Positions 6,681 to 23,468 of a stretch of 26,105 nt of DNA are shown here, piece after piece; the first letter of the stretch is position 1, and each line of letters opens with the position of its first letter. The notes beneath the pieces were generated by a model, which did no database searches, had not been told where the DNA came from, and worked only from the letters and a program-made list of their open reading frames with translations. A program made the position numbers and the translations under genes. Source of the DNA: an uncultured Candidatus Saccharibacteria bacterium. Lineage in GTDB: Bacteria; Patescibacteriota; Minisyncoccia; Minisyncoccales; CAYTKG01. The stretch lies in assembly GCA_964539465.1 (NCBI GenBank), contig CAZIIL010000001.1:1-26105 (forward strand), in the 5' to 3' direction.

Positions 6681-7609
6681 TAAATTTGAACGATTAAGAG
6701 GTCTATGGCGGACTCGGCGTCAATCTTTCCGGTTTTAATATCAAGGTCTGTCTGAATAATCTTTTGGTATATTTTTCTGAGCTCTTTGAGTTCAAACCCC
6801 TGGCTTAGTTGGTAGATTTTCCTGATTTGAAACGGACGCCAACCCAGATTCCAGATTGACTGTTGATTCTTGAGATGTTCTTTCATAAGCAGCAGTTTTC
6901 TAAACTCAAAAGCGATCATAGAAAGCAGATACAAGGGAGATTCACCTCTTTCTAAGTCCTGATGAAGAAAAGCAATCGCTTTCTGTTTTTGTTTGGAGGC
7001 AATAAGGTCCAATGTTTTAAAGATGCTTTCTTGAGAATCAGTCCTTATAATGATTTCTATATCTGATTCTGATATAGATGTCTTATCGTTTCTTTTATAA
7101 CTAACTAATTTTTGAATTTCGTTGGAAAGACGCCATAAGTCATTTCCTGTTGCTTTAAGCAAAAGCTGGAGGGCTTTTGGTTTTATTCTTGCCCCATATG
7201 CGGAGAATTCTTTTTTTGTCCAGCTTTCTAAAGCATTGGTTTTCAGCGGCTTAAACTCCTGCGTCTGACTATTTTTCTTTAAGGCAATAAAAAAAGGGTT
7301 CTTTGCGGGAACCTCTTTCCTCTCATAAAACACAATAATATCTTTTGCTCCAGAAAGCCTTTTAAGAGCTTTTATAGATTTCTGTTGGAATAAAGGATTC
7401 GCAGATACATTCTTTAGAACGAATAATCTATTTTCTCTAAATATAGACCGAGTTTGAAATTCATCCCGAAAGTCCTTAAACAGAGAATTTTCTAAATCAA
7501 AAACTCTTAGGTTGAGACCATTCTTGTGGACTTTTTCGTATTCTTCGATAATTTCTTTGAGTTTGCGCAGCGACCTGAAATTATCTTTTCCATAAAGAAA
7601 AATTATCAT
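6680..7609 (-). CDS. holA: DNA polymerase III subunit delta
   Basis: MIIFLYGKD.FRS, GNDLWRLSNEIQKL, IFKTLDLIA, DLDIKTGKID; adjacent to rpsT. Confidence 0.88.
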   Translation of the reverse strand: MIIFLYGKDNFRSLRKLKEIIEEYEKVHKNGLNLRVFDLENSLFKDFRDEFQTRSIFRENRLFVLKNVSANPLFQQKSIKALKRLSGAKDIIVFYERKEVPAKNPFFIALKKNSQTQEFKPLKTNALESWTKKEFSAYGARIKPKALQLLLKATGNDLWRLSNEIQKLVSYKRNDKTSISESDIEIIIRTDSQESIFKTLDLIASKQKQKAIAFLHQDLERGESPLYLLSMIAFEFRKLLLMKEHLKNQQSIWNLGWRPFQIRKIYQLSQGFELKELRKIYQKIIQTDLDIKTGKIDAESAIDLLIVQI

Positions 7610-7629
7610 CCGTTTATTCTATAAACCTC

Positions 7630-7893
7630 TTATGCTGATTTATTCAACATCTTTGTTATTCTGGACTTTTTTCTGGACGCATTGTTCTTTTTTATTACGC
7701 CCGTCTTGGCTGCCTTGTCCAGCGCCTTAGAATATTGAGGTAATATTTTTTTAGCTTCTTCAGTTTGTTTTTGAGAAGATAATCTATCAATTTTTTTAAA
7801 AAGATTTTTGATGGTTCTTTTCTTTCGTAAATTTCTAACTCTTCTTTTCTGGCTTTGACGAAGCGCTTTTTTTGCAGATTTTATGATTGGCAC
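7630..7893 (-). CDS. rpsT: 30S ribosomal protein S20
   Basis: MPIIKSAKKALRQS.KRR.RN ... LDKAAKTGVIKKNNASRKKSR; GTG start. Confidence 0.96.
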   Translation of the reverse strand: MPIIKSAKKALRQSQKRRVRNLRKKRTIKNLFKKIDRLSSQKQTEEAKKILPQYSKALDKAAKTGVIKKNNASRKKSRITKMLNKSA

Positions 7894-7991
7894 ATTATTT
7901 GGTTCGCCTTCCCCTATAATAGGTTCAGCTTATCTCTAATTAAACTTGAGATTTAGGGTTTAATAAGGTTAAGGATTTTATCTCTGAGATT

Positions 7992-8021
7992 ATAGTAGTA
8001 TATTTTTGCAGTTTTTGTCAA
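7992..8021 (-). promoter_or_regulatory. Sigma70 promoter candidate for rpsT-holA
   Basis: Minus strand TTGACA-18 nt-TACTAT, with an overlapping TATAAT. Confidence 0.45.
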
Positions 8022-8032
8022 TTTTTTAGGCA

Positions 8033-8108
8033 AAATAGGACCGATAGGCCGCAAGGCAAAGTTTCATTTTGCCTTGCGGGAGAGCGAGCAGATAAAATCT
8101 GCTCGCTC
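8033..8108 (+). repeat. Mosaic element between the divergent rpsT and ruvA genes
   Basis: ATAGGACCG-ATAGG, CCGCAAGGCAAAGTTTCATTTTGCCTTGCGG, GAGCGAGCAGAT-AAA-ATCTGCTCGCTC. Confidence 0.9.
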
Positions 8109-8225
8109 GAAATGTACAACATGGAAAGTTGCGCAAGAGGAGGGCTATCTTCCAGATATAATGTATAAAAGGAAATCGAGAATATGATATAATGTTTTAA
8201 TACTTAATAACCCCAACACTAATCT

Positions 8226-8796: not shown

Positions 8797-10113
8797 ATGG
8801 AGAACAAAGTGCTTTGCTTTTTTATTAATCAATATCATTTTTTGTGGGCTCTATTGGGCGCTATATTCTTTGGTTTTTTATCTTGTCTTCACAGATGCTT
8901 TAATAAGCGGGCAAAAAAGATAAAGATTATCGGAGTTACTGGGACAAGCGGCAAATCCACCGTGATTGATTTGACAGGCAATATATTAGAGGAAGCGGGC
9001 TACAGGGTTGCAACTCTGTCTTCAATCAAATTCAAGATTGGCAACCAAGAGCAGAAGAACAAAATGAGAATGACAATGCCCGGTCGGGCTGTTATTCAGA
9101 GATTTCTTTGGCAGGCAATGAGGGCTGGTTGTGAATATGCCATATTAGAGATTACATCCGAGGGAATCTTGCAGCACAGGCATAGATTCATTGATTTTAA
9201 TGCAGCGGTTTTTACCAATCTAAGTCCTGAGCATATTGAACGCCATGGCTCATTTGAGAACTACAGAGAAGCAAAAGCAAGGTTTTTTAGAGCAGTGAAA
9301 AAGACACATATAATCAATTTAGACGATAAGAATGCTGATTATTTTTTGCAATTTTCAGCAGGCAGGAAATATCTTTATAATCTCAAATCTGAATCGTCAA
9401 TCGCCAATGGTGAAATTACTGCAGAGGGCGCGGCAGTTTCAAGTTCCGGAGTAAGTTTTTCTGTAAGAGGTGTTAAGTTTAATCTGAAATTATTAGGCAG
9501 ATTTAATATCTATAATGCTCTTGCTGCAATATGTGTCGGTCTTTCTCAAGGCATTGATTTGGAAACTTGTAAAAAAGGATTAGAAAAGATAAGGGGCGTC
9601 TCGGGGAGGATGGAGTTGATCATTTCTAAGCCCTTTAGGATTTTTGTTGATTACGCCATTACCCCCAACGCATTAGAGCAGGTTTATCAAACAATTAGAC
9701 AGAACTTTCTCTCTATGGATTCTCTAAATGCACAGGGCGGGAAAATGATTTGTGTTTTTGGTTCTTGCGGCGGGGGAAGGGATAAGTGGAAGAGGCCGGT
9801 TATAGGAAGATTGGCGGCTCAATATTGCGACAAGGTGATTCTTACTAACGAAGACCCTTATGGCGAAGACCCAGAGCAGATTTTATTGGAAATAAAATCT
9901 GGAATTCCGAACGAAAAAATGCCGATAGTAAGCTTGATTTTAGACAGGCGAGCAGCTATTAAGAAAGCGCTTGATTTAGCTCGAGAAAACGACACTGTTA
10001 TTATTACTGGCAAGGGTTGCGAGCCCTCTATGTGCTTGGCAAAAGGGAAACAGATAGCATGGGACGACAGGCAAGTGGTGAGAGAAGAATTTGAGAAATT
10101 GACTAAGAGATAA
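8797..10113 (+). CDS. murE: Mur ligase, MurE-like (UDP-N-acetylmuramyl-tripeptide synthetase family)
   Basis: IGVTGTSGKST, LEITSEG, FTNLSPEHIERHG, Y.EAK, GRFNIYNALAA, VSGRME, FGSCGGGRDKWKRP, TNEDPY, IITGKG. Confidence 0.8.
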   Translation: MENKVLCFFINQYHFLWALLGAIFFGFLSCLHRCFNKRAKKIKIIGVTGTSGKSTVIDLTGNILEEAGYRVATLSSIKFKIGNQEQKNKMRMTMPGRAVIQRFLWQAMRAGCEYAILEITSEGILQHRHRFIDFNAAVFTNLSPEHIERHGSFENYREAKARFFRAVKKTHIINLDDKNADYFLQFSAGRKYLYNLKSESSIANGEITAEGAAVSSSGVSFSVRGVKFNLKLLGRFNIYNALAAICVGLSQGIDLETCKKGLEKIRGVSGRMELIISKPFRIFVDYAITPNALEQVYQTIRQNFLSMDSLNAQGGKMICVFGSCGGGRDKWKRPVIGRLAAQYCDKVILTNEDPYGEDPEQILLEIKSGIPNEKMPIVSLILDRRAAIKKALDLARENDTVIITGKGCEPSMCLAKGKQIAWDDRQVVREEFEKLTKR

Positions 10114-10222
10114 TAGGACGAATAGGACCAATACGCTGCAAGGCAAAGTGAAACTTTGCCTTGCGGGGAGGCGGGCTGGCAAAGCCAGCCCGCCCAGCGA
10201 AGCTTCGCTCCGCAGAAAAAGC
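10112..10222 (+). repeat. Mosaic element between murE and archease
   Basis: ATAGGACGA-ATAGGACCA-ATACGC, GCAAGGCAAAGTGAAACTTTGCCTTGC, GCGGGCTGGC-AAA-GCCAGCCCGC, GCGAAGCTTCGCTCCGC. Confidence 0.92.
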
Positions 10223-20449: not shown

Positions 20450-21922
20450 ATGACAAAGAGATTCTATGTCACCACAGCAATAGATTATGTTAATGCTCCT
20501 CCCCATATAGGCCATGCTCTAGAGAAGATACAAGCGGATGTATTGGCAAGGTATCATCGTTTTTTGAAAGAGGATGTTTTTTTTCTAACCGGTACGGATG
20601 ATAATGCTCAAAAGAATGTGCAGGCGGCTGATAAACAAGGACTTCCCATACAGGAATTCACCAATAGAAACGCAGCGGTTTTTAAAGAAATGGGAAAACT
20701 CTTAAATGTATCTAACAACGACTTTATCCGAACCAGCAGCAAGTCCGAACATTGGCCAGGGGTAGTTAAACTCTGGCAGGAATGTCAAAAAGCAGGCGAT
20801 ATTTATCAAAAAGAATATTCGGGACTTTATTGCTTGGGGTGCGAGGCATTTATAACGGAAAAGGACCTGGAAAACGGGCTTTGCCCAGAACACCTGAAAG
20901 CGCCGGAGCGGGTTTCTGAGAAGAACTATTTTTTTCGTCTTTCAAGATATCAAGACAAATTAAAGAGATTAATTAAAAGCGATAAATTAAGGATTGTTCC
21001 AGAGAAAAGAAAGAATGAAACCCTAAAGTTTATTGAGTCGGGCTTGGAGGATTTCAGCGTTTCGCGGCCAGCCGAACGGATGAAAAACTGGGGCATTCCT
21101 GTCCCCGGCGATAATAGCCAGATTATCTATGTCTGGTATGACGCCCTAAGCAACTATATTACTGGCTTGGGCTATGGAAGAAAGGACAATAAATTATTTA
21201 AAAGATTCTGGCCAGCCGATGTCCATGTTATAGGCAAGGGAATTCTGCGTTTCCATGCGGTTTTTTGGCCTGCTATGATACTTTCTACTGGATTAGAATT
21301 GCCTCGGACAATATTTGTTCATGACTATATCACTGTTGGTGGGCAAAAGATGTCAAAGACAATAGGAAACATTATTAACCCTATTGAGTTGGTAGAGAAA
21401 TATGGGACAGACCCTGTCAGATATTTTTTCCTAAGGGAGTTTTCTCCCTTCCAAGATGGAGATTTTTCCTACAAGCGATTGGAAGATAGATATAATTCTG
21501 ATTTAGCAAAAGGGTTAGGAAATTTGACGGCCAGGATTCTAACAATGGCTCAAAAAACATTTACGGAAAGTGTTAAGTATAACCCCGATTCTCAATTTAA
21601 GAGTTTATTTGAAAAAACTACAAAACAGATAGGACAGCATATGCAGAACTTTCGTTTTAATGATGCTGTAGCCGCTGTCTGGCAGTTGATAGGATTCTGC
21701 GATAGATATATTGAGAAAGAGCGACCATGGGAAGAAGGAAAAGAACAGGCGCTCAATAATCTGCTTGCCGCTTTATCCCACATTGCTTTAAGTCTGCAGC
21801 CGTTTTTGCCAGGTACTTCAGAAAAGATTTTTAAACAATTGGGGATAAAGAATAAAAGCAAACCATTATTATTCAGGGTTGGAAAAGGTGAGTCACTATT
21901 TCCCCGCTTGGAAAAGGAATAG
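20450..21922 (+). CDS. metG: Methionine--tRNA ligase (short form)
   Basis: FYVTTAIDYVNAPPHIGH, TGTDDNAQK, YCLGCE, CPEH, YVWYDAL, GKGILRFH, KMSKT. Confidence 0.97.
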   Translation: MTKRFYVTTAIDYVNAPPHIGHALEKIQADVLARYHRFLKEDVFFLTGTDDNAQKNVQAADKQGLPIQEFTNRNAAVFKEMGKLLNVSNNDFIRTSSKSEHWPGVVKLWQECQKAGDIYQKEYSGLYCLGCEAFITEKDLENGLCPEHLKAPERVSEKNYFFRLSRYQDKLKRLIKSDKLRIVPEKRKNETLKFIESGLEDFSVSRPAERMKNWGIPVPGDNSQIIYVWYDALSNYITGLGYGRKDNKLFKRFWPADVHVIGKGILRFHAVFWPAMILSTGLELPRTIFVHDYITVGGQKMSKTIGNIINPIELVEKYGTDPVRYFFLREFSPFQDGDFSYKRLEDRYNSDLAKGLGNLTARILTMAQKTFTESVKYNPDSQFKSLFEKTTKQIGQHMQNFRFNDAVAAVWQLIGFCDRYIEKERPWEEGKEQALNNLLAALSHIALSLQPFLPGTSEKIFKQLGIKNKSKPLLFRVGKGESLFPRLEKE

Positions 21923-21987
21923 GATACATAGGACCAAATAGGATTAATACGCCGCAAGGCAAAGTGAAACTTTGCCTTGCGGCGTAT
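21918..21987 (+). repeat. Mosaic element with a perfect 19-bp hairpin
   Basis: 9-mer-like units followed by ATACGCCGCAAGGCAAAGT-GAA-ACTTTGCCTTGCGGCGTAT. Confidence 0.92.
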
Positions 21988-22023
21988 GTAATTGTTCAAT
22001 CTTCCAGATTAAACAATTGGAGA

Positions 22024-22075
22024 TATTGCTTTTTCGGCAGATTTGTGTTATAAGGGCACAATGTTGCTCTTTACT
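22024..22075 (+). promoter_or_regulatory. Duplicated promoter/leader, copy 1
   Basis: TTGCTT-17 nt-TATAAG; 47/52 identical to 22595-22646; followed by AGGAGGTGA. Confidence 0.75.
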
Positions 22076-22090
22076 TTAGGAGGTGAAGAC

Positions 22091-22510
22091 ATGAAGAGGT
22101 TTTTCTTGCTCGAAGTTTCTTTACTGATTCTTGCTTGTGGACTCTTCGCCGCTGGCGCGGTGGCTGAGCCCGCTCTTCCTGCTCCTGTTTCCGCTCCTGT
22201 CCTCGCTCTTCCCCCATCTCCTGTTCTTCCTCTCCCCGTTCCTTTTACCTCTCCTCTTTCTACTCCTACTTCTACCCAAGAGCTCCGCATCAAGTATCTT
22301 CAATACGATGAACAGGGCATCGCCATCCTGGAAGTGACAGTCGATGGTGGAGAGATAAAGACAGTAGGGCTTCTTGAGGGTCGTCCCGTCCGTATCCAAA
22401 TCTGGAACGCGGACGGAGAGGTCATCAAGGACATCTACTTTCTCCTATTAGAGGATGGGAACATCTACTATAAGGAGAAAAAGGAGGACGAATGGACAAG
22501 TTTGGCTTAG
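22091..22510 (+). CDS. Secreted hypothetical protein with Pro-rich linker
   Basis: SD AGGAGGTGA then ATG 22091; signal-peptide-like MKRFFLLEVSLLILACGLFAAGAVA; Pro/Ser/Thr linker; acidic beta-rich C-domain. Confidence 0.75.
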   Translation: MKRFFLLEVSLLILACGLFAAGAVAEPALPAPVSAPVLALPPSPVLPLPVPFTSPLSTPTSTQELRIKYLQYDEQGIAILEVTVDGGEIKTVGLLEGRPVRIQIWNADGEVIKDIYFLLLEDGNIYYKEKKEDEWTSLA

Positions 22511-22519
22511 GTCTGGCTT

Positions 22520-22544
22520 AGGGGACGCTTCGGCGTCCCTTTTG
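22520..22544 (+). terminator. Intrinsic terminator
   Basis: AGGGGACGC-TTCG-GCGTCCCTT followed by T-run. Confidence 0.8.
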
Positions 22545-22594
22545 TATTTGGGTGTTGTGTAACGAGGTCAGACCTTGTTACAGTGCCTTGAGGG

Positions 22595-22646
22595 TATTGC
22601 TTTTTCGGCAGATTTGTGGTATAAGAATACAATATTGCTCTTTACT
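22595..22646 (+). promoter_or_regulatory. Duplicated promoter/leader, copy 2
   Basis: TTGCTT-17 nt-TATAAG with extended TG; 47/52 identical to copy 1. Confidence 0.75.
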
Positions 22647-22670
22647 ATAGTTCACCTTAGGAGGTGAGAA

Positions 22671-23276
22671 GTGAAAAAAAGAATGTTCTTCTTGGTAGGA
22701 CTCTTGCTGGTTGGTGGCGGGCTTTTAGCGCTTGGATTCGCCGCCGAGCCATCCCATGCTCTCGCTTCTATGTCCATTGGGGACACAGAGATAGAAGAGC
22801 TCTATTACCAGTTCCGGGCGGACTGGCAAGACCAGCCAGACGGGGAAGAAGATGTCTGGCAGGTCTCTGCAGAAATGCGGGGGGATTGCGAGGACTTTGT
22901 TCTTACTTTCTCCACCCAACTGCCTTCTTATTATGAATCGTTTCTCGTTCGCATGGAAGTAGAAACGATTCATCAATTCCTTGGTATTCAGTTGGGCAGG
23001 AAAAGTAGCGGCCACATTGCTGCTATCCTGTTTAACACCCAAACAGGAGAGATTTGGGTGTTAGACAATGATTGGATAGTGGGTCTCCGTGGCCCCTTCC
23101 CTCCAGGCCTGATTGGCTCCTCTTCCCCTGCTGTCATGGCTCTGAGACAGGGACAAGAAGAAGGACAAACAGGGTTTCTTTCTCGGAAGAGAGAAGTAAC
23201 AAGGATACAAATTTCCCTTTTTACACTGGAAAGGGAAGTTTTCCGGGAAGACAACAGTGTGCTTTGGCAAAAATGA
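22671..23276 (+). CDS. Exported transglutaminase-like cysteine protease (BTLCP/LapG-like)
   Basis: Signal peptide, then GDCEDF, GHIAAIL and WVLDN: Cys-His-Asp order and motifs as in BTLCP. Confidence 0.65.
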   Translation: MKKRMFFLVGLLLVGGGLLALGFAAEPSHALASMSIGDTEIEELYYQFRADWQDQPDGEEDVWQVSAEMRGDCEDFVLTFSTQLPSYYESFLVRMEVETIHQFLGIQLGRKSSGHIAAILFNTQTGEIWVLDNDWIVGLRGPFPPGLIGSSSPAVMALRQGQEEGQTGFLSRKREVTRIQISLFTLEREVFREDNSVLWQK

Positions 23277-23305
23277 CCCCACAGATTTATCGTGGGGTCT
23301 TTGCT
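23275..23305 (+). terminator. Terminator-like hairpin
   Basis: GACCCCAC-AGATTTATC-GTGGGGTC followed by TTTGCTTTT. Confidence 0.55.
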
Positions 23306-23325
23306 TTTGAGAGATGGGCTGGTTT

Positions 23326-23365
23326 CTCCTCCGCCAGGCGGAGGAGGGCAGGGCAGGGCAGGGCT
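23326..23365. repeat. 10-bp palindrome plus GGGCA x3
   Basis: CTCCTCCGCC-A-GGCGGAGGAG followed by three GGGCA units. Confidence 0.7.
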
Positions 23366-23468
23366 TTGCTCTAATAGGCCCATGGAAAACTCTGTCAAGA
23401 ACAGTTCTGGACAGAGTTTATGTAGATAGGAACGAGATCAGATTTCGTTGCAGCAATGTTTTATAGGG

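Follow-up and report, generated by a model that had tools for sequence, protein, structure and literature searches.

The interval between metG and leuS on contig CAZIIL010000001.1 of an uncultured Candidatus Saccharibacteria bacterium (positions 1 to 26,105, referred to at its full length of 26,105 nt as the window) carries two adjacent genes for exported proteins, gene 1 (product P0001) and gene 2 (product P0002), each of which is led by a copy of the same expression header, that is, a promoter, a 5′ untranslated region (5′UTR) and a Shine–Dalgarno sequence (SD). This arrangement probably arose by a local, partial tandem duplication through which the header of an old gene for a LapG-like protease (gene 2) was passed to a young orphan gene (gene 1), and not as part of a cassette array or regulon. 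The host is an uncultivated, ultra-small CPR (candidate phyla radiation) bacterium of the Parcubacteria/Paceibacteria. Searches within the window covered the 26,105-nt contig, and comparisons were made with related loci from public collections (L numbers) and with Logan contigs from seven runs (X numbers). The closest named relatives by MetRS are Paceibacterales metagenome-assembled genomes, and the contig is present at 2–5× depth in salt-marsh metagenomes. Features of the window are on the plus strand unless stated otherwise.

The header was recovered in a repeat search of the contig as a two-copy direct repeat of 63 nt (22017–22079 and 22588–22650, 86 % identity). For the 52-nt block beginning at 22024, the identity of 47/52 reported in a preliminary description of this DNA, together with the −35 and −10 elements that the blocks contain upstream of both genes, proved exact. 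A 23-mer spanning the −35 box and the greater part of the spacer (ATTGCTTTTTCGGCAGATTTGTG) was identical in both copies and occurred exactly twice in the contig (0 expected from 100 shuffles). Both headers have the form TTGCTT-17 nt-TATAAG with TG at −15/−14, and in both the SD AGGAGGTGA ends 4 or 5 nt before the start codon. In header 1 (22017–22090), the −35 box TTGCTT (22026–22031) and the extended −10 element TGnTATAAG (22046–22054) are separated by a 17-nt spacer and followed by a short 5′UTR and the SD (22078–22086); this header is without 10 nt (TTCACCTTAG) that header 2 carries. Header 2 (22588–22670), which occupies the ancestral position, has its −35 box TTGCTT at 22597–22602, its extended −10 element at 22617–22625 and its SD at 22659–22667.

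Each header leads into a gene with termination signals of its own. Gene 1 (22091–22510, ATG start at 22091, 139 aa), an orphan, is followed by an intrinsic terminator (22520–22551) composed of a 9-bp GC-rich stem (22520–22541) and the T-run TTTTGTATTT. Gene 2 (22671–23276, GTG start at 22671, 201 aa), for a putative distant BTLCP/LapG-like cysteine protease, ends in an intrinsic terminator (23275–23309), the stem of which (23275–23299) overlaps the stop codon and is followed by TTTGCTTTTG; this terminator is kept in the ortholog locus L001. The perfect SD and the separate terminator that had been described for each gene were thus both located by coordinate. The adjacency of the two units received independent support from a Logan contig of run X1, which covers 22297–23056 and runs from unit 1 into unit 2. 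Promoter activity and high expression of both units would be predicted from these signals.

The history of the locus was read from relatives. In eight JGI contigs of a more distant relative (L001–L008; MetRS 63 %, LeuS 65 % and AI-2E transporter 70 % identical to those of the window), the order is metG, P0004, leuS, and gene 1 is not there. P0004 is the syntenic ortholog of the protease (54 % identical to P0002); upstream of its gene good promoter hexamers, the word GCTCTTTA, AAGGAGGTG and the GTG start are retained, and the rest has diverged. In the closer relative L009 (metG 84 % identical at the nucleotide level), metG is followed by a different repeat hairpin, a header and an ortholog of gene 1 (P0006), after which the beginning of a stem resembling the gene 1 terminator is visible. 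The L009 header is 90 % identical to header 2 of the window and has the 10 nt (T[TG]CAC[CT]TTAG) missing from header 1. Because of the states found in L001–L008 and in L009, the protease unit is taken to be ancestral at the site and the upstream copy of the header to predate the divergence of the window lineage from that of L009. The site is accordingly occupied in relatives by one gene (L001–L008) or by at least gene 1 (L009), with population variants on short contigs. The gene content of the site, which the preliminary description had proposed to compare, differs between relatives (one gene in L001–L008 against two in the window), and the history read from them is simple.

Later divergence of the two headers can also be followed. 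The stem-forming 10 nt were deleted from header 1 and not inserted into header 2, and the loss, which lies between TAG repeats, appears to have occurred after the split from L009. At positions 22029 and 22035, the cassette-1 headers of L009 and of a variant in runs X3/X4 carry T and the two window headers carry C, a pattern suggestive of gene conversion in which header 2 re-homogenised the 5′ part of header 1. In the X3/X4 contigs (aligned to window 22595–22650), the cassette-1 header variant is followed by GAGGTGAAGA and ATG AAG AGA TTT ATG ATA GT (MKRFMIV...), an N-terminus unlike those of P0001 and P0006.

The extent of the duplication was judged from the coding sequences. Between the mature parts of P0001 and P0002 no similarity is detectable, neither at the protein level nor in any frame of the DNA; the description of one header on two unrelated exported cargos stands. 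That gene 1 might have arisen from gene 2 by frameshift or divergence was rejected, as neither tblastx nor blastn gave matches. The two signal peptides, both of 27 codons and ending in A-E-P, are identical at 40/81 nt (codon-shuffle null 24±4, p ~2e-4), more than the 28/81 nt shared by the signal-peptide DNA of the true orthologs P0002 and P0004. The duplication thus probably reaches through the SD into the 27-codon signal peptide and then stops. Two copies only, produced by a simple tandem duplication of genes that would be diverged paralogues, had been named as the outcome that would speak against a cassette system. Half of this was found: there are two copies in the contig and the event was local and tandem, but it duplicated the header, probably with the signal peptide, and not the mature proteins.

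Taken in order, the proposed events would be as follows. The protease gene would be an old resident of the metG–leuS gap that uses GC-rich codons and is equipped with a strong sigma-70-type promoter, a full SD and an intrinsic terminator. A local, partial tandem duplication in the window's sublineage would have placed the header (promoter, 5′UTR, SD and probably signal peptide) just upstream, where the copy would have come to drive an orphan gene in which a Pro-rich linker precedes a small beta domain. The headers would then have diverged by the loss of 10 nt from header 1, with the −35/spacer part probably re-homogenised by gene conversion. Each unit would now have its own promoter copy, strong-SD translation in an otherwise SD-poor genome, a similar signal peptide and separate termination.

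The two genes differ from their surroundings in translation signals and composition. Among the 23 gene starts of the window, each surveyed over the preceding 25 nt, SD matches of more than 5 nt were found only for genes 1 and 2; the other 21 starts match the SD by 4–5 nt at most, in line with the earlier statement that the neighbours lack SDs. The higher GC content and the pyrimidine skew that had been noted were likewise reproduced (GC 0.47–0.50 against 0.39–0.42 for the neighbours; pyrimidine-rich coding strand at 22000–22400). GC content at third codon positions (GC3) is 0.50 and 0.49 in genes 1 and 2 against 0.394±0.032 (maximum 0.45) in the other window genes, and among NNY codons those ending in C make up 0.62 and 0.49, respectively, against 0.29. 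The combination of own promoter, strong SD and own terminator is common to both genes, in a window that is otherwise SD-poor.

Such a profile would be expected of a recently acquired foreign islet, the promoters, SDs and GC-rich codons of which are leftovers of an SD-using donor. GC and GC3 10 points above the flanks, the different codon choice and the restriction of strong SDs to these two genes of the contig are all consistent with this origin, and the protease gene must have arrived sometime, since in more distant Paceibacteria (L010, L011, L023, L025 and L054) the metG–leuS interval is occupied by tatD, in some cases together with cysS or further housekeeping genes, and tatD is ancestral there; in the window lineage, tatD is gone from this position and the protease gene is in place. 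A recent arrival is nevertheless unlikely. The ortholog stands at the same site in an AT-richer lineage in which MetRS is only 63 % identical, and there it is the more deviant (P0004: GC3 0.47 against 0.278±0.037, and the sole SD-led gene of the L001 locus), the anomaly being undecayed. The protease pair (54 %) is more diverged than the flanks, which argues against a recent exchange of the gene between these lineages; purifying selection acts on both genes, and neither has close homologs outside these lineages. The same build recurs in distant family members on other contigs: L091, L092 and L093/L094 have TTG(C/A)TT-17-TATAAT promoters, long SDs and GC3 above that of their neighbours (0.41–0.43 against 0.23–0.34 for L092 and L093). 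In L009 the GC3 of P0006 is 0.49 against 0.38 for metG, and in L009, L092 and L093 the protease-family or gene 1 members are the only strongly SD-led genes of each locus. Because the anomaly persists, and is even larger, in an ortholog of 54 % identity, selection, probably acting on how strongly the genes are expressed or on how their translation is initiated, is favoured over a recent foreign origin; maintained selection for strong or special expression fits the data better. The notion that secreted genes generally come and go in the metG–leuS gap was discarded in view of the tatD and housekeeping genes found there in distant Paceibacteria.

A crude scan of 15 Paceibacteria-type loci, a small sample in which several genes are homologous, gave SDs of at least 8 nt only before signal-peptide genes. 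The anti-SD motif has been found in only 48 % of Parcubacteria (PMC9297842). One Paceibacterota locus contains, as its sole SD-led gene, a 259-aa open reading frame (ORF) with a lipoprotein-like signal (L023:556–1335; LKFTVLFLIIACAF...) and AAGGAGGTGAAGT upstream. In header 2 of the window, TCACCT (22652–22657) can pair with AGGTGA of the SD (22662–22667), and weaker equivalents are present at L009:1046–1061 and L001:9752–9770, so that the SD might be occluded by the pyrimidine stretch upstream of it. When the 5′UTR folds were compared with those of shuffled sequences, the window leaders were not more stable (z −0.2 and −0.7), and the L001 leader gave z −2.5; an Rfam search for a structured leader or known RNA returned noise only. 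On a wider reading, a minority of exported Parcubacteria proteins would be kept under a second, maintained expression regime (strong promoter, full SD, GC-/C-ending codons, own terminator) in genomes in which the housekeeping genes go without SDs, the header being a portable module whose local duplication gives birth to secreted genes, here an orphan that is possibly a substrate or partner of the LapG-like protease. We put this forward tentatively, as a possibility that is rather doubtful at present.

P0001 consists of a signal peptide ending in AVA-EP, a Pro-rich linker (residues ~27–62) and an all-beta C-terminal domain of ~75 residues (65–139), which was modelled by AlphaFold2 (AF2) with a per-residue confidence score (pLDDT) of 80–90. 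No meaningful match was obtained in Pfam, NCBIfam or the PDB sequences, with Foldseek against the PDB or in a viral scan, and look-ups of the exact protein sequences of P0001, P0002 and LeuS were empty. A single homolog was found in 5.8 billion clusters, profile search included: P0006 of L009, with 68 % identity. The ratio of nonsynonymous to synonymous substitution rates (dN/dS) for this pair is 0.23, and 0.19 for the C-terminal beta domain; because of the value of 0.23, gene 1 is regarded as real and under purifying selection. Judged by its sequence relatives, gene 1 is a young, lineage-specific orphan.

P0002 carries the motifs GDC73ED, GH115 and LD131N, which contain the triad Cys73-His115-Asp131. 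An exhaustive HMMER search of 1.84 billion representatives returned nine relatives; in the family alignment W63, G71, D72, C73, D75 and H115 are invariant, and D131 is present in 8/9. PF06035, the family of the bacterial transglutaminase-like cysteine proteinases (BTLCP), is matched at E≤1 by eight of the nine family members (best 1.8e-6), and the family profile, when searched against the PDB, matched the LapG structures 4FGO and 4U65 only, aligned on W...GDCEDF. In the AF2 model of P0002 (pLDDT 77), Cys73 begins a helix (73–82), and His115 and Asp131 lie on the following strands. The export signal, as seen by eye, combines the n-region KKR with a hydrophobic core of 17 residues and a c-region rich in Ala; Sec or Tat signals, also judged by eye, are present in 9/9 family members. 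Protease activity and Sec export are predicted for P0002, which on these motifs is a secreted, distant LapG/BTLCP-like cysteine protease of a sister clade and not a member of curated PF06035. The clade so defined is small and was previously unannotated; its members come from contigs of Parcubacteria and from metagenome contigs that are short and unassigned.

Further observations concern this family. Downstream of two of its distant members lie homologous neighbours (L092:831–1418 and L093:1202–1801; BLASTP E 8e-7) of ~195 aa with an N-terminal membrane anchor, which may be a conserved partner of the protease clade and are unrelated to P0001. A small signal-peptide ORF at L093:930–1100 (VNKWLVVAGILMSLFFVG...) has a promoter resembling that of the adjacent protease gene, with TTTTATCCTATAA in common, and may represent a second copied promoter beside this protease family. 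A high-GC, Mu-like viral contig with repressor and transposase genes (L095, IMG/VR UViG_3300048575_000492) encodes a canonical BTLCP of 162 aa at 1712–2200 with the motifs GDCEDFA, HAVL and VLDN.

LapG-type proteases cut at a di-alanine in the N-terminal retention module of their substrate. It can accordingly be asked whether the two window genes form a functional pair, in which P0001 would be a substrate released at the di-alanine of GLFAAG, as LapA is cleaved by LapG, or an inhibitor or partner of the protease, and in which the common header would ensure co-expression. The genes adjoin and have the same promoter type, FAAG is kept in both P0001 and P0006, and the L092/L093 loci keep a homologous membrane-anchored neighbour. 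This pairing is very unlikely all the same: the protease occurs without gene 1 in L001–L008, the L092/L093 neighbour is not related to P0001, and FAAG lies in the hydrophobic core of a signal peptide that is likely to be cleaved, where di-alanines are common.

The preliminary description had suggested a cassette array or regulon, with the header as a reusable module across surface or host-interaction genes under one regulator or recombinase. The two unrelated cargos behind one header are in keeping with this, as are the salt-marsh header variants, including that of X2 in a different repeat context and that leading into the MKRFMIV... N-terminus, and the contig L090, which sets header 1 behind a tyrS context. 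We nevertheless regard such a system as quite unlikely. No third header copy was found in the contig, so that there are two in 26 kb. A degenerate pattern of all known header variants gave 0 matches in 32 million GTDB contigs, a collection that does not hold the genome of the window, and 0 in IMG/VR; among 241 million JGI metagenome records it matched one, L090, which is header 1 itself. The linked recombinase or sigma factor that had been proposed as a sign of such a system is not encoded in the window, the ORFs of which are of the housekeeping kind (holA, ruvA, Mur ligase, archease, RtcB, NIF3, Elp3, AI-2E transporter, metG and leuS). Repeats resembling recombination sites are not common to the unit boundaries; what precedes one header is unrelated to what precedes the other, the same holds for the stretches that follow the two terminators, and each palindrome there is unique. 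In the outgroup, the promoter is conserved only in generic hexamers, with no operator-like constraint visible, and the history of the locus in relatives is a simple one.

Several points weigh against the partial duplication as proposed, and two of them stem from metagenome contigs. L090:1–1553 (JGI Ga0315549_1084040) is identical to the window from the mosaic hairpin through header 1 into gene 1, but upstream it departs from it, with the 3′ end of tyrS and a very acidic ORF of 65 aa on the minus strand; the two sequences part at a repeat hairpin also found at 10112–10166. As a second genomic context of header 1, this record was rejected: in a Logan contig that has the tyrS-side context, the hairpin is followed by other sequence, which contradicts the join. 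L090 is probably chimeric at the mosaic hairpin, a real rearrangement being the less favoured possibility. The second contig, of 214 nt from run X2, aligns to window 23363–23413 and 22594–22643 and contains 9-mer units, mosaic hairpins (one like that at 23387–23419), 33 nt and a header variant (3 differences) ending in GCTTTATCACTTTAGG. The view that it shows a third header copy, lying downstream of gene 2, was considered and then downgraded, as the upstream 9-mer units and mosaic hairpins resemble a gene-end junction; the equivalent junction of another strain is more likely than a further header copy. The remaining points are of a more general kind. The header count covers one contig, and further copies may lie elsewhere in the genome. 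The duplication of a header would account for the header and probably the signal peptide of gene 1 but not for its mature part, the similarity of the signal peptides could partly reflect the composition common to signal peptides, and no RNA runs holding the stretch were found. The assignment of the protease has its own weak places: the match of P0002 to PF06035 (E 4e-4, 20.5 bits) is under the gathering threshold of 27, and its best and sole coherent Foldseek matches are vasohibins (probability 0.94–0.99, TM score 0.36–0.46), with E values of only ~0.06. Vasohibins and LapG belong to one transglutaminase-like cysteine protease superfamily (PMC4866520).

The sequences around the two units are rich in repeats. 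Unit 1 is bounded upstream (21920–21987) by the metG stop, several 9-mer units in succession and a perfect hairpin of 19 bp (21947–21987) that belongs to a mosaic repeat family; a hairpin of the same type is present at 10112–10166, and assemblies break or switch at it. A tight palindrome, TGTAACGAGGTC-A-GACCTTGTTACA, lies between the units (22558–22582) and occurs once in the contig. Between unit 2 and the leuS promoter, a GC-rich hairpin and the palindrome I3 (23387–23419) occupy 23318–23419 (no strand assigned) and are probably further mosaic-repeat modules. In the flanking genes, the 3′ 566 nt of metG are 84 % identical between L009 and the window, whereas the upstream part is ~67 % identical (L009:1–390 against window 20975–21362), which suggests that metG contains a recombination breakpoint or has diverged unevenly. 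L001 has a gene with a TP_methylase domain (7556–8221) between the AI-2E transporter gene and metG, which the window is without.

With one gene in the outgroup and two with a common header in the ingroup, the locus offers a clean and dated case of how a new secreted gene is equipped in a reduced genome. It is also a well-controlled instance of a pattern in Parcubacteria, in that the SD-led, GC3-rich genes seen here are those of exported proteins only, which bears on how translation starts in these bacteria. A cassette array or regulon, if true, would suggest a new form of surface-protein diversification in ultra-small symbiotic bacteria; the evidence favours an ordinary partial duplication.

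Among known systems, integron gene cassettes resemble the locus in being short single-gene units set in a row in one orientation. They are promoterless, bounded by attC and moved by the integrase intI, whereas here each unit has its own promoter, and neither attC-like boundary repeats nor an integrase were found. Phage ‘morons’ are similar in that complete transcription units of differing composition stand between housekeeping genes, here metG and leuS. They differ in their phage context, viral scans having been negative for the header and for gene 1, and in that the protease unit is vertically inherited at a fixed site with a composition anomaly that is kept and not fading. For gene 2, the counterpart is the BTLCP family (peptidase C93, PF06035; LapG of Pseudomonas and Legionella, HvyA of Caulobacter), the members of which are, like P0002, small exported proteins. 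The likeness extends to the W...GDCED(F/Y) motif with the catalytic Cys at a helix N-terminus (in the model), to the His and Asp(-Asn) on the next strands and to the Asp two residues past the Cys, which aligns with the calcium-binding Asp of LapG. The P0002 clade differs in being very small and separate, with a PF06035 score below the cutoff, in an extra C-terminal segment that P0002 has in common only with its ortholog, and in its host, a bacterium of the candidate phyla radiation (CPR), which we take to be probably without an outer membrane. Unlike for LapG, a LapD-like receptor, type I secretion genes or a giant adhesin were found neither in the 26-kb contig nor in the L001 locus.

The closest parallels to the header itself are presumably the ‘upstream homology box’ genes of Borrelia burgdorferi (ospE/ospF/elp/erp) and the vlp genes of Mycoplasma hyorhinis, in which a conserved upstream region and signal peptide are joined to unrelated mature parts. 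As in the window, a block of promoter, ribosome-binding site and leader peptide has been copied before divergent exported cargos. Those families are multi-copy, usually located on plasmids or switching loci and linked to antigenic variation, whereas here two tandem copies were seen, with no phase-variation repeats or signs of switching. Partial tandem duplication, self-contained accessory units and the BTLCP superfamily are thus known kinds, and it is the persistent regime of strong SDs and high GC3 that gives this locus its additional interest.

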